DNA from: Naegleria gruberi | Taxonomy: Eukaryota | Direction: 5' to 3' (one strand) | Assembly (NCBI GenBank): GCA_000004985.1 | Contig: GG738848.1 | Length of the DNA: 64,000 nt | In this document: one piece after another, positions 6,235 through 52,312 of the stretch | Numbering within the stretch: the stretch's first letter is position 1 | Layout: each line of letters opens with the position of its first letter | Program-made: the position numbers and the translations under genes | Notes under the pieces: model-generated | What the model was told of the DNA's origin: nothing | The model's input: the letters and a program-made list of their open reading frames with translations, nothing else | Databases searched by the model: none

Positions 6235-8413
6235 ATGTCTCAAACATCGCAAGCTGCTGCTACTGATGAATTGAATCCTCACATACAATTAGACAACCAA
6301 AACAAGGTGGTGGTGGAGGAGGAGACTTGTTTGGATCATCATCATGATGATGTGAATATTGAAGAATCTTTAGAATCAACTATTGAACATTACCATGATG
6401 AAATTGAGGAGAATGAGGTAGTAGCAGATAATGATGATCATCATCAACAACATTCGGACTTGAATCAACAAAAGAATAAGAATAGAAAAAACAAGCCAAA
6501 GAAGGTTTTTCCTGCTTCTCAATTCTTTATTGCCAATCAATCAAAGAGTAATGAAGAAGCTAATCTAGTCGAAACGAATGATGATCATGATGAAGAAGAA
6601 TATTTTCATTCCGAAGAACCAGAACTTGCCTATCACTATAAAGGACATAGTTTTATAGTTAACAAGACAGCATATAAGCCAAATAGTAATTCTGGCAATG
6701 GCAGTAGTAGTAGCAATACAAACAACAAGAATAACAAATCAAAGAAGCAACATCACCACAATCATAGTCATCATCACAAATACAATAATTACTATCAAAG
6801 ACCAAAGACAAAGGAGGAATTTGTGTTGGCCAAGTAGGTATTACTGAAAATTTCAAATTAATATATACTAACCAATTTGAAAGCTTTCATTTCGTTTTGA
6901 GACCCCTTTCTCAGAGTAATACCAATTTTATTAATCAACAATTTCATATCACTGAATATAACAATGGAAAATTTGATGCAGACACACTAGTTGATTGGGA
7001 TACCATTGAATTGGTTATTCAACAAACTCATGATGAAAATCAAGAATGTCCAATTTGTCTTGATACATTTAAGGCACCTAAAATGACAAAATGTGGCCAT
7101 GGTAAGTTTTTAACATGTTTGAATATTGAATATTAAATTTATGATTAGTTTTTTGTTATCCTTGCATTTTGAGACATGTTGCTTTAGGAGAAACAAACTA
7201 TAGAAAGTGTCCTCTCTGCAATGAAAGTGTTTATATAGATGCATTGAGAAGTGTAAGAGTTGAATACAGGAAGAAATATAAAGAAAATGACAAGATGAAT
7301 TTAGTTTTGCTTAAACGAGATAAGAAACTTATAATTCCAGACCTTGTTTCTGAGTTGAACACTACCAAGGAGGGTGTTCAATCAAAGGATTTACCTACTA
7401 TTTATCCAGTTGATGGTGATTCTGAAAGTGCCAAATTTTCCCGATTTAATGTTACCTATGATATTTCTCAAATATTAGAAAAGGAACTTGCTGATTTGGA
7501 CAATTCTCTTAAAACATCTGAAAGTGCTGCGGAATCTGAATTTATAGTATTGGCAAAGGATCAAGTTCTTCAAAGAAAAAAGGATTGGCTTGAATGGACA
7601 AAAACACATTTGGCAAAGGGAAAACCAACCCAACCAAAAAACAAATCCTCACAAAAACCTGAAGTATCTCAAGCCACAGAGAAGAAAGAAGTTGAGGATT
7701 ATTGGTATTATCAATCCTCTGATTGTCAAATGATATTCTTACATCCTCTCTGTTCAAAAATGTTAATTCACGAATTCCAAGATTACAGTAATTTTCCAAC
7801 CAATCTCAATGATTGTCCAATATTAGAAATTGAAACAGTTGAACTCAATGAGGAATTAAGAAGGAGATATCCTGTTCTTAAGCATGTTCCTTGTGGTTGT
7901 TACATTTCTCTGGTAGAAATTGATATGAGGAATATTGTATCAAAGGAGACGATTAATACATTTATAAAAGATATTAAGCATAGAAAATATAGAAGAGACG
8001 AAAAGGTGAGAATGAGAATAAGAGAAGAACAAGAGGAAAAGAAGAATGAGGAAAAGAGAAAGGAAGAAGAAAGACTTGCCAGGGAAAGATTAATTCAAGA
8101 GTTGCACATTTCTAACTTTCCAGAACTTATTTCCACTCCTCCACCTGTTAACAGTGATTTCCACTTCCCTACAACGTTGAAAACAGTAACACCTGTCCAA
8201 CAACAACAGCAACCTGAAAAGAAACAAAAGAAGCCAAACGATTGGTCAAAACGTAAGCAACAAATAGACATTACCCAATCAGTAGCAAGTTCTTCAGTAC
8301 AATTACAAGGAGATTGGGCTAAGAAAACTAACACAAATACTACAACAAAGAATGTATCAACCAGTTCTGGTAAAAAAGATGATTTTCCATCCATAAAGTC
8401 AAAGAAGAAGTAA
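6235..8413 (+). CDS. RING-type E3 ubiquitin ligase, RNF10 (yeast Mag2)-like; 3 exons
   Basis: Exons 6235..6833, 6884..7101 and 7149..8413. The donor GTAGGT at 6834 and acceptor AAG at 6881-6883 give a 50-nt intron; the donor GTAAGT at 7102 and acceptor ...GATTAG at 7143-7148 give a 47-nt intron. Splicing rebuilds a C3HC4 RING: ECPICLDTFKAPKMTKCGH|VFCYPCILRHVALGETNYRKCPLCNESV, which is the RNF10 signature (CPICL...CGH.FC.PCIL.....W..CP.C). The starts of the track ORFs at 6897 and 7169 are TTG artefacts inside exons 2 and 3. The C-terminus is K/E-rich. Confidence 0.75.
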
Positions 8414-8467: not shown

Positions 8468-11400
8468 TTATGCATTTTTAGCAAGATATTTTTCAATTTT
8501 TTCTTTAAACATATCATCAATGTAAGTATTTTGAATGTTAATTACTCGAATGGTATTATTCGATTTGGCAAAATCAATCAAAGCTAAAGCTGCACCAATT
8601 GAAATCAAATTTCCACTCAAATCAAGCTCAACAATTGTTGGATGAGGCTTGAGAATTGAGACTAGGGTTTCAATAGCTGGATTTCTGAACCCTTGTTTTG
8701 GCAAACTCAATTTGTGGAATTCAACATTTAAAAGAGTTTCCAAGAAAGGCTCTAATCCCTTATCACCTAAATAATTGTCTGATAAATTAACTTCTCCATC
8801 GGTGACGATAGTATTTGTGCCAAATTGAGCTCTAAGACGAGTGTTTGGTCTAAGAGATCTCTTTTCACAGTTTTCAACATACACATCCTCAAGAGTTCTT
8901 TCCTTAACAGGTTCTTCTTCCTTAGTTTCTTCCACCACATATTCAGCTTGAGCTTCTTCGACATGTGTTTCTTCTGGTTGTTTGTGTTTTTCTGGTGCGT
9001 CAACACTTGTTTCCTCATGAGGTTCTTGTTTTTCCTCTGGTTGTTGGTGTTTTTCTTGCTTGTCTTCTTGTGTTTCTTCTTTTTGAGATGATTTCACGTG
9101 TGTTTCTTCTGAGAGTTTGGTATCAACAAAAGTTTCTTGGTGTGTTTCTTCCTGTGTTTCTTCATGATGGTTTGTTTCATCTTGTGTTGTGTATGAATCT
9201 TCAATTGTTTTAGTTTCTTCAGCAAATCTCACATGATGTTCCTCTTCAGTGGAAGATTCTTCTGAAGGTTGTTCTTCAAAGGTTTCAAAATCTTCTTCAA
9301 ACGAGTCAAACTCATCTTCCTTTTGAAGTTCAGCTTGTTCTTCTTCATGAGTTGTCTCCTTTTGTTCTTTTTGGTTATCTGCTGTCTCAATCTCTTCTGC
9401 TTGTACCTCCTCTTGTTGGTCAACCTCAAAAGGCAAACTTTCTTCATGGAATGGTTCTTGAACTGTTTGTTCTCTTGGAGATTCTTCTCCAGGAAAATGA
9501 TCCATATCTGTTTCTTGTTGATGACTTGTATCTTCTTTTTCTTCAGCTTCTTCTGATTGTTCTTTCATTTCCTTTTCCACTTGATCAACAAACTCGTTTG
9601 ATTCTTGTTTAATTTCTGTTGATTCCTCATTTGCAAACTCTTCGAATTGTTCCTCGAATTGATCTTCGAAGTGATCTTCGAATTGTTCCTCATGTTGATC
9701 TTGAGTTTCCTCTTGAGTTGGTTCATGGTCTTCTTGAGTTTCTTCTTGAGTTTCCTCATATTTCTCTTCGAAAAATTGATCTGTTTCATTGAACTCTTCC
9801 GTATTTTGCTCGAATTCATCAGTAGTTTCATTGAATTGATTTTCCTCAAAGTTTTCTTCATGACTTTCAATATTTTCAAAATTCTCATGTGTTTGTTCTT
9901 GGTTTTCAAGGCTCTCGAAGGTTTCTTCTTCAGTATTTTCTAGGGCAACTTCGTTATTTTCTGAGAATTCTTGTTCAACATGTTGTTTGCTGTTTTCAAA
10001 TTCATCCTCTTTAGTGACTTCCTCAGAAGATACTTCCTTAATGGACTCTTCATGTGCTGTTTGGTGAACCTCAAAGTCCTCTTCTTCTGAAACATGTACC
10101 TCTTCTGATTGTTCTTCATGTGATTCTTCCAATTCCTCTTGCTTACTTTCCACATATTCAACTGTTTCTTCAACTTGTTTAATCTCGCTTTCCTGATTGC
10201 TTTCTTGATGTCCAATATGTTCTTCGGTGCATTTAATTTCATCATTTTGTTCTTTGTGACTGTGTTCCTCAATAATTTGCTCCTCTTGTTCCTCAACCTT
10301 TTTGACCTCATCAACACTTTCGTGCTTAACTTGATGATGATCTTCAACCCTATCATGGTGTTCTTCATTCTTGATATCTTCCCTATGTTCTTCAGTTGTC
10401 TCAATGTTTTCATGATTCTCTTCGGTATGTTTATGCTCTTCAACAGATGCTTCCTCAATAGCTTGAGGTTTCTCTGTATTGGCAACTTCAAAAGGTAAGC
10501 TTTCCTCTTGAGGTGGTTCTGTAACTGGTTCCATTTTTGGTTCTTCTTCTTTGACAATTTCTTGTGCATGGATTTCTACTATTTCTTCAGTTTGCTCTTC
10601 GGAGGATTTGTTAATAATCTCAGTCTCTTGATATGCAATATTTTCTTGCTTATCATCGTGATTATGCTTTTCCTTCTTCTCTTCATTATCATGCTTTTCC
10701 TTCTTCTCTTCGTGATCATGTTTCTCAACCTTTTCTTCTTTCTTATCGTCTTTCTTCTCTTCAGGATCATGTTTTTTCTTCTCTTCCTTTTCTTCCTCAA
10801 CTTTCTCATCGTGTTTAAGCTCGTTTTTCTTCTCTTCATGATCATGCTTTTCCTTTTTCTCTTCACGATCATGAATCTCAACCTTTTCTTCCTTAACTTC
10901 CTCATGGTTATGTTTATCCTTCTCTTCATGAACATGTTTCTCAACATTTTCTTCCTTAACTTCCTTCTCATGGTTATGTTTATCCTTCTTTTCTTCATGA
11001 TCATGTTTCTCAACATTTTCTTTCTTATCCTCGTCGTGATTATGTATATCCTTCTTTTCTTCATGATCATTCTTTTCCTTCTCTTCGTGGTCATGTTTCT
11101 CAACATTTTCTTCCTTAACTTCCTTAACCTCCTCGTGGTTATGCTTATCCTTCTTTTCTTCATTTTCTGATTTTTTCTCATGACCTATTTCAAATGGCAA
11201 ACCTTCTTCTTGGAGTGGTTCTTGAATCGTTTGTTCTCTTGGGGATTCCACGTCTGCAAAATGATCCATATCTTCAATGTCTCTATGGCTTTTAGTTTCA
11301 GTATCTTCTTGTTCATGTGTTTCATGATCATCTAAGGTTTGATATTGCTCATGGTCGTGGCTTTCAGGAAGGGTAGAGCTGGTTTCATCATGATCCTCCT

Positions 11401-14281
11401 CAGTACACTCTTGTTCAGAGTGCACATCATGGAGATGAATAATAGATGTGTTGATTTCTTCCACATATTCGTTATGTTGGTCCGAATGTACTTCTTGCTT
11501 GATTTCTTCAATATGTTCACCGTGTTCCTCAACCTTTGTTTCCTCATGATTATACTGTTCATCTTGATGATCTGATGGTTCATGATGTTGAGTGGAATCG
11601 TGAGATTCCTGCTCTTCCATTTTTTCTACATGCTCGTCTTGCGCGCCAAATTGTTCATCTGTTTGCTCTACAGTATTAAGGGTGGACTCTTCAACATTCA
11701 CTTCCTCTTCATGTTGTATTTCTTCAGATTTAGGTTCTTCTACTTGTTGGACAGGTTCCTCTTCAAGTGGTTCGGCTGGTTCTTCCTCAGATGGAGATTC
11801 TTCTTGAACTGTGTCCTCATGAGTTGCTTCTATGGCTTGCTCTTCCAGTGGTGTCTCTTCAATAGGTTGCGATTCTTCTTGAATCAGATCTTGTGATTCT
11901 TGAACCTCTTCCTCTGGAGAAACAGGTTCCTCTTGTTCAATTTCTTCTTGTTGAGCTTCTTCGAAAAGTTGCTCTTCTTGAGTCTCTCCGGCTGAATTTT
12001 CTTGGACTGGTTCTTCCTCTTGTGTTTCTTCTTGAACAGTAGATTCCTCAATTGGTGCTTCTTGAACTGTTGCTTCTGGTGTTTCCTCAATTGGTTGATC
12101 ATCTTCAGTTTCTTGAGGAATTTCTTCAGTCTGTTCTTGAGCAGGTTGCTCTTCTTGAACATATTCCTCAATGTCAGCAGGTTGTGCTTCTTGAGCAACT
12201 TCCTCTTGAGAAACAGGTTCTTCCTGTTGAAGTTCTTCTTGTTTATCCTCAACTTCATGAGCAGTTGCTTCTAATGGTTGTTCTTCGTGTACTGGTTCCT
12301 CATCTACAACTTGCTCTATTGCAGGTTCTTCTGGTTGAACTTCTTCTTGTAGTGGCTCTTCATGCTCCTGGGTAGTTTCTTCTTGAGTTGTTACTTCTTC
12401 TGGTTGAGTTTCTACAATCTCCTCAGCTGGTTGAACTTCTTCTTGTAGTGGCTCTTCAGGAGAAGCTTCTTCTGGTTGAGGTTCTTCAATTCTTTCCTCC
12501 TGGGTTTCTTCCACTGGTGGTTCTTCTACTGGCCCAACTTGCTCTGGTTCTTGGGTCTCATCAACAGCTGATAGCTCTTCTTGGTGAGTTTCCACTTCTT
12601 GATCTGTAGATTCGTCAACCTCCTGCACTGGAACAGTTTCTGGGGAGGGGTCTTCATTGAGTTTCTCTTCCTCAGCTTGTTCCCCAACAGGTTGAGCTTC
12701 TTGAACCTCTTCCTCTGGTTGAATTTCTTCTTGCTCTTCTTGAACATGATCTTGGGAAGATTCTTCCTGGGTTGGTTCTTCAACTGGTTGTGATTCTTCT
12801 TGAATCAGATCTTGTGATTCTTGTTGGACCTCTTCCTCTTTAGAAACAGGTTCCTCTTGTTGAAGTTCTTCTTGTTTATCCTCAACTTCATGAGCAGTTG
12901 CTTCTAATGGTTGTTCTTCGTGTACTGGTTCCTCATCAACAACTTGCTCTATTGCAGGTTCTTCTGGTTGAGCTTCTTCAGCAGGAGATTCTTCTTGAAC
13001 TGTCTCTTGAGTTGGCTCGACAGGAAGGTCTTCTTGTGTCTCCAATGGTGCATCTTCAACAGGTTGAGCTTCTTCCTGGGTTGGTTCTTCAACTGGTTGT
13101 GATTCTTCTTGAATCAGATCTTGGGAATATTCTTCCTGGGCTACTGGTTGTTCTTCTTGAGCTACTTCCTCTTGTTCAATTTCTTCTTGTTGAGCTTCTT
13201 CTTCGAAACGTTGCTCTTCTTGAGTCTCTTCAGCCGAATGTTCTTGGATTGCTTCTTCCTCTTGTGTTTCTTCTTGAATAGTAGATTCCTCAATTGGCTC
13301 TTCTTGAACTGTTTCTTCAGGTGATTCTTGGATTGGTTCTTCTTGAGGAACTTCTTCTGTGGATTGAAGTATTTCTTGAGTTTCTTCTGCTTGAGGTTGC
13401 TCTTCTTCAGAAGGAGAAGAATTCACTTCTTGAGGAATTTCTTCAGTCTGTTCTTGAGGAGAATTCACTTCTGTTGCCTCAACAGGTAGGGTTTCCTCTT
13501 CCACTTGTTCTTGAGCTGGAGATTCTTCTGTTTGAGGTTGCTCTTCCAACGGAGCTTCCTCTTCAATAGGCTTATCCTCTTCTTGTGAAGGTTCTTCCTG
13601 AAGTTGTTCGTCCTTAGCTTCAGGCTGGTTTTCCTCGTTCAATTGATCAACCTGGGTTTGTTCTGCTGTTTCCTCTGCAACAGTTTGATTTTCCTCCTGA
13701 AATTCATTTAATTCAGTTTCCCCAGTTGGTGCTGATTCTTGTGGCTTCTCTTCCTCTACTGGTTGATTTTCTTGAGGTGATTCTTCTTGGATTGGTTCTT
13801 CTTGAGGTACTTCTTCTGTTTCTTCGGCCGTAGAAGTATTCACTTCTGTTACTGCTTCGGAAACTTCGGCAGCATCTGAGACAGGTTGTTCCTCTGTTTT
13901 TTCGTCCACTTTGGAATCCTCTTCCTTTGTTGGTTCTGAAATTTCTTCAGTAGTATTATTCTCGATTTGTTCCTTTTTTTCCTCTACAGGATGTTCCTCA
14001 GTATTTTCATTATTTACAGAATTTGATGGTTCCTTATGCTCTTTTTCATCAGAATTGAGGTTAGAAGCCGATACATTTTTTGAACCTTGTTGTTTTTGCT
14101 GATACTCATCCTTGACTGTATTTGCTAGAGCATCTCTGAAAGAAGCATTATCGATAAGAACAGGCGTAAGCTCGACACTTGTAGGAAGACTTTCCACTAC
14201 AGGTTCTGTAATTTCATCTTCATTAAAGTCATCTGTTGTATTTCCGATTAGATTATTATCGTTATGAACCTCAGTGCTCAT
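8468..14281 (-). CDS. giant (1,937 aa) hyper-acidic low-complexity repeat protein with C-terminal RNI-like leucine-rich-repeat cap
   Basis: Continuous minus-strand ORF. The real ATG is at 14279-14281 (aaaaagaATGagc; MSTEVHNDNN...); the track start at 14308 is a GTG artefact. Most of the body is E/Q/P/V-rich (EEPVQEE.., PEEPAIEQVVDEEPVHEEQPLEATAHEVEDKQEELQQEEPVS occurs twice). There is a His/Lys/Glu-rich block (KHDHEEKKDKHNHEEVKE repeats). The C-terminal ~180 aa are LRR/RNI-like (VEFHKLSLPKQGFRNPAIETLVSILKPHPTIVELDLSGNLISIGAALALIDFAKSNNTIRVINIQNTYIDD). Overlapping ORFs on the opposite strand are low-complexity artefacts. Confidence 0.8.
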   Translation of the reverse strand: MSTEVHNDNNLIGNTTDDFNEDEITEPVVESLPTSVELTPVLIDNASFRDALANTVKDEYQQKQQGSKNVSASNLNSDEKEHKEPSNSVNNENTEEHPVEEKKEQIENNTTEEISEPTKEEDSKVDEKTEEQPVSDAAEVSEAVTEVNTSTAEETEEVPQEEPIQEESPQENQPVEEEKPQESAPTGETELNEFQEENQTVAEETAEQTQVDQLNEENQPEAKDEQLQEEPSQEEDKPIEEEAPLEEQPQTEESPAQEQVEEETLPVEATEVNSPQEQTEEIPQEVNSSPSEEEQPQAEETQEILQSTEEVPQEEPIQESPEETVQEEPIEESTIQEETQEEEAIQEHSAEETQEEQRFEEEAQQEEIEQEEVAQEEQPVAQEEYSQDLIQEESQPVEEPTQEEAQPVEDAPLETQEDLPVEPTQETVQEESPAEEAQPEEPAIEQVVDEEPVHEEQPLEATAHEVEDKQEELQQEEPVSKEEEVQQESQDLIQEESQPVEEPTQEESSQDHVQEEQEEIQPEEEVQEAQPVGEQAEEEKLNEDPSPETVPVQEVDESTDQEVETHQEELSAVDETQEPEQVGPVEEPPVEETQEERIEEPQPEEASPEEPLQEEVQPAEEIVETQPEEVTTQEETTQEHEEPLQEEVQPEEPAIEQVVDEEPVHEEQPLEATAHEVEDKQEELQQEEPVSQEEVAQEAQPADIEEYVQEEQPAQEQTEEIPQETEDDQPIEETPEATVQEAPIEESTVQEETQEEEPVQENSAGETQEEQLFEEAQQEEIEQEEPVSPEEEVQESQDLIQEESQPIEETPLEEQAIEATHEDTVQEESPSEEEPAEPLEEEPVQQVEEPKSEEIQHEEEVNVEESTLNTVEQTDEQFGAQDEHVEKMEEQESHDSTQHHEPSDHQDEQYNHEETKVEEHGEHIEEIKQEVHSDQHNEYVEEINTSIIHLHDVHSEQECTEEDHDETSSTLPESHDHEQYQTLDDHETHEQEDTETKSHRDIEDMDHFADVESPREQTIQEPLQEEGLPFEIGHEKKSENEEKKDKHNHEEVKEVKEENVEKHDHEEKEKNDHEEKKDIHNHDEDKKENVEKHDHEEKKDKHNHEKEVKEENVEKHVHEEKDKHNHEEVKEEKVEIHDREEKKEKHDHEEKKNELKHDEKVEEEKEEKKKHDPEEKKDDKKEEKVEKHDHEEKKEKHDNEEKKEKHNHDDKQENIAYQETEIINKSSEEQTEEIVEIHAQEIVKEEEPKMEPVTEPPQEESLPFEVANTEKPQAIEEASVEEHKHTEENHENIETTEEHREDIKNEEHHDRVEDHHQVKHESVDEVKKVEEQEEQIIEEHSHKEQNDEIKCTEEHIGHQESNQESEIKQVEETVEYVESKQEELEESHEEQSEEVHVSEEEDFEVHQTAHEESIKEVSSEEVTKEDEFENSKQHVEQEFSENNEVALENTEEETFESLENQEQTHENFENIESHEENFEENQFNETTDEFEQNTEEFNETDQFFEEKYEETQEETQEDHEPTQEETQDQHEEQFEDHFEDQFEEQFEEFANEESTEIKQESNEFVDQVEKEMKEQSEEAEEKEDTSHQQETDMDHFPGEESPREQTVQEPFHEESLPFEVDQQEEVQAEEIETADNQKEQKETTHEEEQAELQKEDEFDSFEEDFETFEEQPSEESSTEEEHHVRFAEETKTIEDSYTTQDETNHHEETQEETHQETFVDTKLSEETHVKSSQKEETQEDKQEKHQQPEEKQEPHEETSVDAPEKHKQPEETHVEEAQAEYVVEETKEEEPVKERTLEDVYVENCEKRSLRPNTRLRAQFGTNTIVTDGEVNLSDNYLGDKGLEPFLETLLNVEFHKLSLPKQGFRNPAIETLVSILKPHPTIVELDLSGNLISIGAALALIDFAKSNNTIRVINIQNTYIDDMFKEKIEKYLAKNA
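10620..11170 (-). repeat. coding minisatellite (~60-66 nt unit) encoding His-rich KHDHEEKK/KHNHEEVKE repeats inside the giant acidic gene
   Basis: Directly visible tandem near-copies such as ttcttcatgatcatgtttctcaacattttcttccttaacttcct(t)ctcatggttatgtttatccttc, repeated at least 7 times with point differences. The translation is a periodic ...EEKKDKHNHEEVKEEKVEKHDHEEK... Confidence 0.8.
11850..13150 (-). repeat. degenerate tandem duplications (~630-nt super-unit with ~130-nt near-identical cores) in the E/Q/P/V-rich part of the giant gene
   Basis: Near-identical blocks at ~12213-12350 and ~12845-12975 (...aacaggttcytcctgttgaagttcttcttgtttatcctcaacttcatgagcagttgcttctaatggttgttcttcgtgtactggttcctcat...). 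Further copies ggttgtgattcttcttgaatcagatcttg occur at ~11861, ~12771 and ~13081. Confidence 0.7.
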
Positions 14282-15002
14282 TCTTTTTGTTTTTTCAATG
14301 TTATACACCTAGTTTATGTAATAAATAATTGTTTAAGTCCTTATTATTTAAAAAAATTAATGACCAACAATGTGTTGAGGGTTGTTGGGATTTTTTTTGT
14401 TCTGTCTCTTGCCCTTAAAATGCTCTTGCTAAGACTACAATGCAGCCAATATGACACATGCACAACCCGCCAATAAAAACTACAAAAAATCCTCTTTTAC
14501 GCCTGTACCTAACCAAGTACAAGGAGGTTCTTTGCAAAGATTTAAACTCACACCCAACGCTTTGACGATAATTGATGTGTTTGTGCCTCTCTACGAGTTG
14601 GGCGGGAAAGTAATAAAAAGAAAATGGGCATATAAAATACCAATTCTGTAAATTCTGTATCGATCACAGAAGAGATCCATTAGTATGATCTTCATCATTC
14701 TCTATTGTGAATAATTCTAAAGTTCAACTGAGATTTTAAACCTTGGAAAGAAATCAACACCAAACAAGTGTCTTCTCATTGTTACCAACTTGGAGAGCTC
14801 ATTATATCCAAACAGAACTCACAACAAATTGTAGGAATTTGTCTCATTTTGATGATCAGTTTCGTCTGCCTAATTTTATTAGACAAGTAAGATTTGAATT
14901 TGTATTTAAAGATTTAACAGGTCTTAATCTGGAATATTTCTGAATTACCATTAGGTAGCTATTCCAATGAAAACAAGATAAAGTTATGTAGACTATTATT
15001 AT

Positions 15003-17771: not shown

Positions 17772-20510
17772 TTACTTTCTGTGGGCAAGAATGTGTACAC
17801 CATCATTAATTCTGGCACGAATATTACCCAAACTTTCCTTGATCTTATCACGGAAAGCATTATCTGCTTCCTCTTTAGAGGCATCGAGAATTAAACATTT
17901 TCTCAACCACAAGACATCTTCAATACTTGACAATTCTGGGATACCTGTACCCAACATTAATGTAAACAAGGTCATTATCATGTGACCATATTTACGTAAA
18001 ATATTGTAAGCCTTACAACCTAATTCACTGAATTTTTCATACATGACACTATTTTCACCACCCATAACATAGGCATACATTGGAGTGAAAACGAAAGGAG
18101 TAGTTTCACGTTTCAAACCAGCAAATGTCTTAAAGTGCCCCAAAAAGTGGCCAAAGTCAATGTGGAACAAGTCTCCCTTCTTGGTTATCATAATATTGTC
18201 ATTGTGTCTGTCACCAATACCTAAAACATAGGTTGCAGAACAGTAACCTGCACAAGAGTGTACAAAGTTATTAACTACTGTATCCCATTCTTCTTCACCG
18301 TTATGTTCTTTGAGCCATTTGTAAATTGGATCTTGTTTGAAAGCACCAGAGAAACCAGCTCTCTTCTTTGTAATATTTGCAATGGTTTGACTGTTTAAAA
18401 CAATTTCAAGCATACCAGTCATATAACCAGTACAAATACAACCATAAGGTTGCATATGAAGATCTAAACCTTCCTTCTTCCACAACTGATCCATAACACG
18501 TAAAACTTGCAAGGTCAATAAATCCTGACGTAAATCGTCACCAGCCTTAAACATGACAAGAATATCATCACCTGTTTCGTCAGCATTCTTGAAACAAAGC
18601 CATAATGGCCTCTTTGCAGAGTCCATGACTCTACATTTTTCTGGAATGATACCAATAACTTCCATACGTGGAGAGAGTGGTAACTTGTATTTTGGTGGTT
18701 GTTTGAGTCCATGAAGTAATTGTACAAGTGCTTCATTAACAGTAGCCTTCTTTTCATGTTTGATCTTAATGGCAATATCGAGCAATTGATCCAAAACACC
18801 GTTTTGTTTCAACAATTCTCTTCTGTGACCACCTGAATTCAATAAATATTCTTCCAAGATAAGACCGTGTCTCTCTTTTGCTGTTGGAACGTGCATTTCG
18901 GCCTTCAAATGCCAAAAGAGAATGTGACCAATGATGTGTGTTGATCTCAAACCTCTTTGAAGCAAAAATCTAGCAAGACTACTGTCATGATATAATTCAT
19001 ACTTAAGTGTTTGAACTAATTGAAGCAAAAAGTCACTCAATTGAACATCTCCTAATTCATTAAGTCTTTCAACTGAATATTGTCTAACTTTTGCATCAGC
19101 AAAGTTATAGTCCAATAATTCTAAAGCATCAACTGGAGTCATTGGTTTCCATCTAGGAAGTAATGTGTGAACAGTATAGACAGCTTGTGGCATCTTCCAT
19201 GGCACGCTCAAAATAAACTTTGGTAAAGCTTTTGGTATGTCAACAAGCTTTTCCTTATTGGACCAAAGTAACCATTTTTCTTCCTCTGTTAGATTTTGAA
19301 GTGGATCTTTGGAAATAATCTGATCAAGTCTCTGTTTCAGTTGTTCTCCTTGTGGTAAATCTTTGAAAAATTCATTAATCTTTTGTTCAAAAGAGGCCAA
19401 ACGTTTAGCCATCTTCTTTGGAGGTCTACCTTGAGGGAAGACCACTGGCAGTGGATAACGATCAAATTGATAAGCAATAACGATTGGTGTTTCATCAGTT
19501 CCAGTATTTTCAGCAACGACACTAATTGGTTTAGCTCTATCATTTGGCCACATTGGAGAAAGATAATCTCCTTGGTTCAAAAATCCCTTAAAGTTAATCA
19601 TTGTCTTAATCACATAACCGAGAGGAATATCCTTTGTACTGACGTGTGAAGGTGTATGGAAAGGATCTTTGGAAGTTGTTTGATTCTTTGTTATCACTCT
19701 TGAGAAGAGAGTAAAGCAGAGCTTTGTTTCTCTTGGAATATCAGAAAGTAAAACATCATCAAATACTATGAATTGATTCCATCTAGGAGATCTACTGAAA
19801 GGTACCATTTTAGTAAATCTGGCTTTTGTAAGTGGTGTACCACCGTGATATAATTCACAGCATACATATAAATAGGTATCGTCAATTTGAGACAAATTTG
19901 AAATAGAGTTGAAATTGAGATTGTCAATGCCCATAATTTTAACTCGTGCACATTTGACTAAATCCCACAAACTCAAATACTGCATTTTGTGCCATTCCTT
20001 TTCTCCAAAACGAATGTCATCATGTGCATAAATTTTTTGGTCCTTCTCGTGTTTAAAATCATATGAAACAGTTTTAAGAGTGACATCTCTAGGATCCAAT
20101 TCAGCCTTCACAGTTTCCTTATCTAAAAGTGTTAGTGTTGGCTTAACTGCCTTTTTCATACATTTTCTAATATGTTCAAATTCTGCCATTTTGTAATCAC
20201 CATACATGTATTCGGCAGTACCAGCTGCTTTAAATACCCAATCTTCCTTCTTTCTTCTCTGTTGATGGGCTGTATTCAATTTGTTTAAAAATATTTCAGC
20301 AAAATCGTCAGCTGTCGTGTTAAAATCACATTCAACAAGTTTTGCTGCCTTATTACCATCAAGTGTACAATTTACGTTAATGTAGAATTTTTTAGTCAAT
20401 TCATTTGGATTAATTGGTTCAACACTCAAAAATACAGGTGGAAGGAAAGCTTCTCTGTCTTCACTTTTCTTATCACTCTTTTCAAAGTGTTGAAGTCTGA
20501 AATTTTCCAT
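17772..20510 (-). CDS. phosphatidylinositol 3-kinase catalytic subunit, class I-like (Ras-binding domain, C2, PIK helical and kinase domains)
   Basis: ATG at 20508-20510. The 912-aa ORF has RBD-like and C2-like regions (LYVCCELYHGG..PRWNQFIVFDD), a helical domain, and a lipid-kinase catalytic core (KAGDDLRQD, GIGDRHNDNIMI, HIDFGHFLG). It has no p85-binding N-terminal domain, a p110-gamma-like layout. Confidence 0.85.
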   Translation of the reverse strand: MENFRLQHFEKSDKKSEDREAFLPPVFLSVEPINPNELTKKFYINVNCTLDGNKAAKLVECDFNTTADDFAEIFLNKLNTAHQQRRKKEDWVFKAAGTAEYMYGDYKMAEFEHIRKCMKKAVKPTLTLLDKETVKAELDPRDVTLKTVSYDFKHEKDQKIYAHDDIRFGEKEWHKMQYLSLWDLVKCARVKIMGIDNLNFNSISNLSQIDDTYLYVCCELYHGGTPLTKARFTKMVPFSRSPRWNQFIVFDDVLLSDIPRETKLCFTLFSRVITKNQTTSKDPFHTPSHVSTKDIPLGYVIKTMINFKGFLNQGDYLSPMWPNDRAKPISVVAENTGTDETPIVIAYQFDRYPLPVVFPQGRPPKKMAKRLASFEQKINEFFKDLPQGEQLKQRLDQIISKDPLQNLTEEEKWLLWSNKEKLVDIPKALPKFILSVPWKMPQAVYTVHTLLPRWKPMTPVDALELLDYNFADAKVRQYSVERLNELGDVQLSDFLLQLVQTLKYELYHDSSLARFLLQRGLRSTHIIGHILFWHLKAEMHVPTAKERHGLILEEYLLNSGGHRRELLKQNGVLDQLLDIAIKIKHEKKATVNEALVQLLHGLKQPPKYKLPLSPRMEVIGIIPEKCRVMDSAKRPLWLCFKNADETGDDILVMFKAGDDLRQDLLTLQVLRVMDQLWKKEGLDLHMQPYGCICTGYMTGMLEIVLNSQTIANITKKRAGFSGAFKQDPIYKWLKEHNGEEEWDTVVNNFVHSCAGYCSATYVLGIGDRHNDNIMITKKGDLFHIDFGHFLGHFKTFAGLKRETTPFVFTPMYAYVMGGENSVMYEKFSELGCKAYNILRKYGHMIMTLFTLMLGTGIPELSSIEDVLWLRKCLILDASKEEADNAFRDKIKESLGNIRARINDGVHILAHRK

Positions 20511-52239: not shown

Positions 52240-52312
52240 GCTGGCGTAGCTCAGTCGGTAGAGCGTTGGTCTAATAAGCCATTGGTCGCCGGTTCGATCC
52301 CGTCCGTCAGCA
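52240..52312 (+). tRNA. tRNA-Ile, anticodon AAT (read as IAU)
   Basis: The 73-nt cloverleaf folds by hand. The acceptor stem GCTGGCG/CGTCAGC has 7 bp with one G-U. The D-arm is GCTC-AGTCGGTA-GAGC (A-box TAGCTCAGTCGG). The anticodon stem is TTGGT/GCCAT with loop CTAATAA (anticodon AAT). The T-arm is GCCGG-TTCGATC-CCGTC (B-box GGTTCGATCC). The discriminator is A and no CCA is encoded, as expected in eukaryotes. It is close to human tRNA-Ile-AAT. There is one mismatch in each of the anticodon and T stems. Confidence 0.8.

Follow-up and report, generated by a model that had tools for sequence, protein, structure and literature searches.

A giant gene on the minus strand of a 64,000-nucleotide stretch of Naegleria gruberi DNA (contig GG738848.1, assembly GCA_000004985.1; hereafter the window) carries a His-Lys-Glu repeat array at 10643..11179, which is a real, translated, old, constrained and lineage-specific tandem repeat. 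The array occupies amino acids 1044-1222 of the product of an open reading frame (ORF) at 8468..14308, with the amino acid numbers of the array counted from the GTG at 14308. By analogy with the muscle protein HRC, which it resembles in kind, the array may act as a low-affinity, multivalent, pH-titratable cation-binding spacer. We hold this reading tentatively, at a probability of about 0.4.

The initial annotation placed a coding repeat at 10620-11170, and this was borne out: the segment is on the minus strand and translates into 184 amino acids (aa 1047-1230; 57 Glu, 47 Lys, 25 His, 19 Asp, 13 Asn and 11 Val). The array itself has 179 residues, including 25 His, 76 Asp/Glu and 48 Lys/Arg, and consists of an 11-aa lead-in and 13 cores of the form K/I-H-x-H-E-E-K-K, which begin between aa 1055 and aa 1214. 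From the N- to the C-terminal side there are four higher-order units, each made of KHNHEEVKEENVE followed by KHDHEEKKD (10850..11146, minus; U1 11048-11146, U2 10982-11047, U3 10916-10981, U4 10850-10915), with a period of 66 nt and a nominal length of 22 aa, the first copy having 33 aa owing to insertions. They are followed by a degenerate middle, KHDHEEKKNELKHDEKVEEEKEEKKKHDPEEKKDDKKEEKVE, parsed at the protein level (10724..10849, minus), and by three 9-aa closing units with a period of 27 nt, KHDHEEKKE, KHDNEEKKE and KHNHDDKQE (10643..10723, minus). Tandem Repeats Finder recognized a period of 66 nt repeated 3.6 times with 82% matches (10836-11070), one of 27 nt repeated nine times with 63% matches (10641-10873) and one of 48 nt repeated 2.9 times (11020-11163).

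Since purine-rich repeats leave several frames open, openness alone is little proof of translation, and two other frames indeed run through the repeat without a stop (10508-11170 on the plus strand and 10579-11181 on the minus strand). The reading frame is fixed because it runs on without a break into the conserved motifs on either flank, over 1,937 codons, and because variation among the cores falls mainly at the third positions of this frame, the pairwise differences at codon positions 1, 2 and 3 numbering 139, 91 and 295. Nei-Gojobori estimates of the proportions of synonymous (pS) and nonsynonymous (pN) differences gave pS 0.54, pN 0.11 and pN/pS 0.20 for the codon-aligned 22-aa units, and pS 0.90, pN 0.13 and pN/pS 0.15 for the KHxHEE core; these ratios are biased toward constraint, as pS is inflated by the fact that every frequent codon is two-fold degenerate and transitions dominate, but the direction of the result is clear despite this. 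All 13 units keep the first His, which is always encoded by CAT, and 10 of them retain the second. The His codons (CAY) are the sole regular codons containing a pyrimidine in a repeat that otherwise uses only purines. The third-position differences, the low pN/pS and the invariant first His thus indicate that the array is translated, old and constrained. Moreover, the units are only 63-82% identical at the DNA level, which speaks for an old expansion, and a sequencing or assembly artefact, which the initial annotation had named as what would undo its proposal, is unlikely in a frame that joins conserved motifs.

Histidine makes up 13.6-14% of the array, against 2.7% in the 21 other long ORFs of the window. 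It does not recur every 2-4 positions, as had been described, but is arranged in HxH pairs that begin 8-25 residues (mostly 8-17) from one another, and His-His spacings of i+1, i+3, i+4 or i+5 are absent from the array. There are 10 HxH pairs versus 3.3 expected (z 4.3), a number reached in none of 5000 shuffles, and the pattern therefore exceeds chance. Acidic residues are enriched at i+1 after His (z 3.7), and Glu-Glu directly follows the HxH pairs. Inspection of the segment by eye revealed no HExxH, EF-hand, coiled-coil or poly-His motif.

With a charged fraction of 0.70, a net charge per residue of -0.14 and a kappa of 0.036, lower than in all 200 shuffles, the array is an exceptionally well-mixed, nearly charge-balanced polyampholyte island inside a polyanion. 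It is the sole Lys-rich part of the protein, reaching up to 28 Lys per 100 aa, with 0-9 in all other bins except two adjoining ones. Its 25 His compare with a net charge of -25, and the calculated charge, about -24 at pH 8, rises to about 0 by pH 5.5-6. A single-sequence AlphaFold2 model of a 281-aa query placed helices at residues 83-167 and 209-243 (aa ~1092-1176 and ~1218-1252), with pLDDT of 50-63 and pTM of 0.20. As a proxy for the Waggawagga scoring matrix we counted opposite-charge pairs at i+3/i+4, which amounted to 0.40 per residue, compared with 1.68 in EEEEKKK and 0.46 +/- 0.04 in shuffles of the same composition (z -1.75); acid-to-base pairs at i+4 had a z of 1.5 and base-to-acid pairs at i+3 were strongly depleted (z -4.5). 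As opposite-charge pairs fall below the shuffle expectation, the array is not arranged as a salt-bridged ER/K single helix.

The gene that contains the array is an uninterrupted ORF, with its first ATG at 14279-14281 and its stop at 8468-8470 (8468..14281, minus), encoding 1,937 aa from that ATG and remaining open over 5.8 kb in a sequence of 34% GC. The initial annotation described the repeat as embedded in a polyanion, and the composition of the whole protein agrees with this: 29.5% Glu, 10% Gln, 5.3% Asp and 5.1% His, with 0.2% Cys and a net charge of about -540. The N-terminal half (window ~11600-14000, minus; aa ~100-900) is a repetitive polyanion rich in Pro, Glu, Val and Gln, with about -0.35 net charge per residue. 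Histidine is unevenly distributed, at 1.6% in aa 1-899 and 9.3% in aa 900-1795. Two young internal duplications were found outside the array, one between aa 444-492 and aa 655-703 (97% DNA identity over 148 nt) and another between aa 324-381 and aa 738-794 (89% over 173 nt). The full-length protein matched no Pfam domain at E<=0.01. It has neither a signal peptide nor a transmembrane segment, and for this reason we consider it of cytosolic type; the mean hydropathy of the first 30 aa is -0.9, the highest KD19 value (1.5) lies inside the C-terminal leucine-rich repeat (LRR) domain, and no hydrophobic stretch occurs outside this domain in any of three Naegleria proteins. The product is a mostly disordered, cytosolic-type and uncharacterised protein. 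Its exact 1,937-aa sequence is absent from a collection of 15 billion proteins, and a profile search with the LRR domain matched N. fowleri, N. lovaniensis and Willaertia magna with no N. gruberi entry among the hits; the reference annotation of N. gruberi therefore probably lacks or mis-models this gene.

Only two parts of the protein can be aligned with the Naegleria orthologues, an N-terminal motif (14081..14227, minus; 63-67% identity by BLASTP over 42-46 aa in both orthologues) and the C-terminal 142 aa. Within the disordered body, where N. gruberi cannot be aligned with its relatives, the only well-conserved element is a short motif of the form [ST]EP[LF]xEE[SG]LPF[ET], here called EEsLPFE. 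It occurs three times in N. gruberi: directly N-terminal to the array (copy 1, DMDHFADVESPREQTIQEPLQEEGLPFEIG, aa 1013-1042, 11183..11272, minus), C-terminal to it as a partial copy (copy 2, EEEPKMEPVTEPPQEESLPFEVAN, aa 1254-1277, 10478..10549, minus) and further downstream (copy 3, DMDHFPGEESPREQTVQEPFHEESLPFEVD, aa 1601-1630, 9419..9508, minus). Most of the stretch from copy 1 to copy 2 is taken up by the array. N. fowleri and N. lovaniensis have one copy each (SEPLTEESLPFT), at aa ~2150-2165 of the former protein (P0002) and aa ~2135-2150 of the latter (P0001). In two of the N. gruberi copies the motif is preceded by DMDHF..ESPREQT, and in the disordered region of N. fowleri and N. lovaniensis Phe is the residue most conserved by position. 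EEsLPFE is a candidate docking motif.

The C-terminus (8474..8899, minus) is a folded domain of the RNI-type LRR class, modelled by AlphaFold2 with a pLDDT of 88 as two N-cap helices, four beta-alpha LRRs and a C-terminal helix. It has the ~28-aa beta/alpha repeats, the LxxLxLxxNxL(g)dxG signature and the horseshoe fold of this class, and shares 72-73% identity with the Naegleria orthologues and 43% with that of Willaertia. In a phmmer search against PDB sequences it matched ribonuclease inhibitor (4e-13) and 1io0 (E 0.04), and Pfam LRR_6 scored 21.7 bits, below its cut-off of 23.4. Foldseek retrieved FAP101, the tropomodulin/leiomodin LRR, the NLRP1 LRR and ribonuclease inhibitor with TM-scores of ~0.6, and with probability 1.00 for ribonuclease inhibitor, the NLRP1 LRR and the tropomodulin LRR, the latter at 20-24% identity. 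Assignment to a specific LRR family (tropomodulin, RanGAP or axonemal LRRs) was rejected, since the Foldseek and phmmer similarities are generic to the RNI type. The domain is presumed to be an anchor or interaction module. In profile searches the single-domain proteins closest to it are small LRR proteins of 180-230 aa that stand alone and have a basic N-terminus (P0006, P0007, P0065, P0078, P0107 and P0109), two of them from trypanosomes, whose annotations are inconsistent ('RanGAP', 'cAMP-dependent protein kinase regulator', 'Leucine-rich repeat'). If the remaining ones are also from kinetoplastids, the domain may be Discoba-wide. P0006 and P0007 bear a precomputed and unconfirmed Pfam label, PF27087.

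Database searches found orthologues of the giant protein in N. fowleri (FDP41_009509, 2,426 aa), N. lovaniensis (C9374_014364, 2,410 aa) and W. magna (ABK040_006661, 1,572 aa), and in no other organism. Orthology with the N. fowleri protein is supported by the conserved termini and by synteny, as its gene is placed tail-to-tail next to a RING-finger gene sharing 57-68% identity with that at 6897-8413 of the window, the same arrangement as in N. gruberi. All four proteins are strongly negative, with net charges from -203 to -542. Histidine content is far more variable: 2.7% in W. magna, 5.1% in N. gruberi, 13.2% in N. lovaniensis and 14.1% in N. fowleri. The two His-richest proteins are about 24% acidic over ~2,400 aa and contain many HH and HxH motifs as well as poly-His runs; the region matching the His-poor N-terminal half of the N. 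gruberi protein is His-rich in both. Thus, His enrichment is a property of the genus Naegleria and not of the whole family, and it behaves as a compositional trait.

The KHDHEEK repeat has no counterpart in any orthologue. The 179-aa segment gave no match at E<=0.001 among 8000 word-sharing candidates drawn from 5.8 billion proteins, and only a spurious match (E 0.17) among PDB sequences; the 184-aa segment matched no Pfam-A family with hmmscan at E<=10. Annotation of the repeat by homology was therefore dropped. The disordered bodies of the N. fowleri and N. lovaniensis proteins are 44% identical, and what has been kept between these species is local His density, not the positions of individual histidines. 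Two isolates of N. fowleri differ by two substitutions and one 3-His indel over ~2,430 aa (HHH versus HHHHHH, at aa ~1095 of P0002 compared with P0156), which indicates that poly-His tracts vary by slippage. A search of the literature for histidine-rich Naegleria proteins or the locus tags of the orthologues returned nothing relevant.

Metal binding by the array is chemically plausible because about a dozen HxH pairs sit among carboxylates and because a well-studied analogue exists in HRC. That such binding is physiological is something we infer; binding of the segment to an immobilised metal affinity column would be almost guaranteed in vitro, and hence no proof of function. In the proposed mechanism the array would be an extended, flexible spacer whose HxH and carboxylate sites hold divalent cations weakly and multivalently, with imidazoles as the ligands of Zn2+, Ni2+ and Cu2+ and carboxylates as those of Ca2+ and Mg2+. 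Protonation of the 25 His from pH 8 down to 5.5 would titrate the charge of the array from about -25 to about 0, and either metal load or pH would then alter the size and charge of the spacer that links the docking motifs on either side. The behaviour expected is buffering or sensing of the HRC kind, not a specific metal site, and the His-bearing character is common to the Naegleria orthologues, carried there by non-homologous sequence. Support comes from the invariant first His, the second His kept in 10 of 13 units, the pN/pS of 0.15-0.2, the need of His for pyrimidine-containing codons in a repeat otherwise made of purines, the excess of HxH pairs and of acidic residues after His, the even mixing of charges and the 13-14% His of the Naegleria orthologues over ~2,400 aa.

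Several observations weigh against this reading. The metal-binding module put forward in the initial annotation is partly supported by the plausible chemistry, the analogue in HRC and the retention of His across units, but the segment matches no metal-binding family, nor any other protein, in Pfam, PDB or the 5.8 billion proteins searched. The W. magna orthologue has His at background level (2.7%), and this residue is therefore dispensable for whatever function the family has in common. The bias of pN/pS toward constraint weakens that line of support. The absence of Cys and of HH runs, together with HxH pairs 8-25 residues apart and flanked by Lys, predicts weak affinity, and free Zn and Cu in the cytosol are very low. 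Finally, His was kept at 0.62 of the aligned N. fowleri/N. lovaniensis positions versus 0.51 in a null obtained by shuffling residues within 30-aa blocks, an excess smaller than those of Glu, Ser and Phe. The raw value, tied with that of Glu, had looked high, but as the excess is small, positional conservation of His was rejected as a sign of specific sites.

Nearly as likely as a cation-binding spacer is a spacer in which composition alone matters, that is, a near-neutral low-complexity expansion, generated by slippage or unequal crossing-over in a fast-evolving disordered region, that provides hydrophilic length and charge between motifs and carries its histidines as passengers of the founding unit. 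Such an origin would agree with a body that cannot be aligned between N. gruberi and its relatives, a repeat that has no counterpart in the orthologues, the young duplications elsewhere in the gene (97% over 148 nt and 89% over 173 nt), the range of orthologue His content from 2.7 to 14%, the lack of special conservation of His positions and the 3-His indel of N. fowleri, a sign of ongoing slippage. What it does not account for is that KHxHEE has been kept (pN 0.11-0.13) in units whose pS is already 0.54-0.9, with the first His present in 13 of 13, and that each of the three Naegleria species, in unrelated contexts, shows His at five times the background level. The mixing of charges beyond that of 200 out of 200 shuffles also suggests selection on patterning. 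The generic alternative that the whole protein is a polyanionic sink or chaperone for Ca2+, Mg2+, polyamines or basic proteins, in which His has no role and the array is a Lys-rich interruption, for instance a patch for self-interaction or resembling a nuclear localisation signal, we regard as improbable. A large negative charge is the one property common to the four orthologues, Lys-rich sequence is confined to the array, and buffers of the HRC and calsequestrin type act via carboxylates (PMC6171002). However, this alternative leaves the invariant first His and the genus-wide His enrichment unexplained, and there is no signal peptide to direct the protein toward a storage compartment.

It is also rather unlikely that the array is a stable single alpha-helix (SAH) of the ER/K kind, working as a semi-rigid ruler or a constant-force spring whose helix would be tuned by pH through His. 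E/K/R-rich linkers of the SAH type are common among eukaryotes (PMC5812594; PMC4183817), about 70% of the array residues are charged, the AlphaFold2 single-sequence model has helices over about half of the array, and the Willaertia orthologue also has E/K-rich stretches. The model, however, has a pLDDT of only 50-63 and a pTM of 0.20, and the charge pairs that would hold such a helix together are too few (0.40 versus 1.68 in the ideal sequence and 0.46 in shuffles), those from acid to base at i+4 having a z of only 1.5 and those from base to acid at i+3 a z of -4.5. Asp, Asn, His and Val, which are poor helix formers, account for ~38% of the residues. Very improbable, finally, is that the array is not real, being an assembly or sequencing artefact, or non-coding or intronic sequence open by chance. 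The two further frames open across the repeat and the failure to find the exact product or an N. gruberi match to the LRR domain in the protein collection could be taken in its favour. Against it, units only 63-82% identical make collapse or expansion errors unlikely, the frame links conserved motifs on both sides through 1,937 codons, variation is mostly at third positions of this frame, and the same architecture is annotated in three other species (1,572-2,426 aa), in one of them with synteny.

Returning to the cation-binding spacer, a wider and much more speculative version of it, which we consider unlikely, would extend to the whole genus. Naegleria species, including the pathogen N. fowleri, would possess an LRR-anchored cytosolic 'histidine/carboxylate sponge' of 200-270 kDa that buffers or senses Zn, Cu, Ni and Fe as well as pH, and the array would be the N. 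gruberi module that respaces the LPFE docking motifs. Per molecule, the Naegleria proteins contain 100-340 His and 570-680 acidic residues, and such a sponge would be a non-homologous and non-luminal analogue of HRC or calsequestrin.

Should metal buffering or pH sensing be true, Naegleria would have a specific cytosolic metal-handling protein of large capacity, and the family would offer a clean natural case of a function encoded by composition and not by sequence; how Naegleria handles iron and copper is under active study. As matters stand, the analysis chiefly documents an apparently unannotated or mis-modelled 5.8-kb gene of N. gruberi, a vahlkampfiid-specific architecture that joins a giant polyanion to a C-terminal mini-LRR, and a constrained, lineage-specific low-complexity repeat, which is useful annotation, if unsurprising to specialists.

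Among the neighbouring genes, the RING-finger gene (6897-8413, plus) is convergent with the giant gene, and its RING domain is split between CGH and FCYPC by a short canonical intron (GTAAGT...TTAG, ~7101-7147). Neighbouring ORFs match phosphatidylinositol 3-kinase (PI3-kinase), rhomboid and Myb domains, and one is identical to NAEGRDRAFT_62643. The ORF at 17772-20510 (minus) encodes a 912-aa class I/III-like PI3-kinase with Ras-binding, C2, PIK and kinase domains; its full product is an exact match to an ENA-derived protein, and the NCBI entry for N. gruberi in the same cluster is a 522-aa 'partial' sequence, EFC49347. A tRNA-Ile(AAT) gene lies at 52240-52312 (plus), with an anticodon typical of eukaryotes.

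Among known systems, the closest in kind is HRC of the muscle sarcoplasmic reticulum, a low-affinity but high-capacity binder of Ca2+ that contains 13% His and more than 30% acidic residues, with His-rich/acidic units in tandem (PMC6171002). Work on Zn2+ sites is among the references of that paper (PMC6171002). Both HRC and the array are disordered and highly charged, with tandem repeats that combine a short His-rich motif with acidic residues, and they are alike in bulk composition (14% His and 42% Asp+Glu in the array), a likeness of kind and no more; the orthologues of N. fowleri and N. lovaniensis are close to HRC in bulk composition too (13-14% His, 24% acidic). The array differs in having no sequence homology to HRC, as it matched neither the Pfam HRC repeat (PF10529) nor HRC in phmmer searches. 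Its motif is KHxHEEKK, whereas that of HRC is HRHRGH followed by 10-11 acidic residues, and it is rich in Lys (26%). The Naegleria protein also lacks a signal peptide and hence is not luminal, and it ends in an LRR domain instead of a Cys-rich (CxxC) one. Bulk composition is thus the single feature, among those tested for membership, that the segment has in common with HRC.

Other likenesses are more distant. SAH linkers are similarly dominated by Glu and Lys, highly charged and placed between functional elements, and the array has a low-confidence AlphaFold2 helix; it differs from them in a charge order below that of shuffles for salt bridges and in its 14% His along with Asp, Asn and Val. 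Plant dehydrins share a hydrophilic, disordered character rich in Lys, Glu and His, and their His-rich motifs mediate metal binding. A dehydrin (LEA group 2) is marked by at least one K-segment (PMC4215689). The Naegleria protein has no K-segment and no Pfam dehydrin match, belongs to an unrelated lineage, is about ten times larger and has an LRR domain attached. The His-rich tails of the bacterial proteins Hpn, HypB, SlyD and UreE, which serve in metal storage or as chaperones, are short, with HH/HHHH runs and often Cys. They share with the array a high His density and, presumably, multivalent binding of Ni or Zn, but the array has isolated HxH pairs in a matrix of Glu and Lys, and no Cys; poly-His runs like those of the bacterial tails are a feature of the orthologues in N. 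fowleri and N. lovaniensis and not of the window.

The remaining likenesses concern the host protein and not the repeat. The C-terminal 142 aa share their fold with RNI-type LRRs such as those of ribonuclease inhibitor, tropomodulin/leiomodin, NLRP1, FAP101 and DRC5, with TM-scores of ~0.6 and 16-28% identity that point to no subfamily, and this likeness is one of the anchor domain; the N-terminal domain of tropomodulin is absent, the full protein having no Pfam match to it. Titin PEVK is an E-rich entropic spring. The N-terminal half of the host, rich in Pro, Glu, Val and Gln and repetitive, is reminiscent of it; the two are non-homologous, and the host has Gln in place of Lys. Histidine-rich acidic repeats are already known, and the Naegleria array is set apart from them as a non-homologous, Lys-rich and cytosolic-type repeat attached to an LRR domain.

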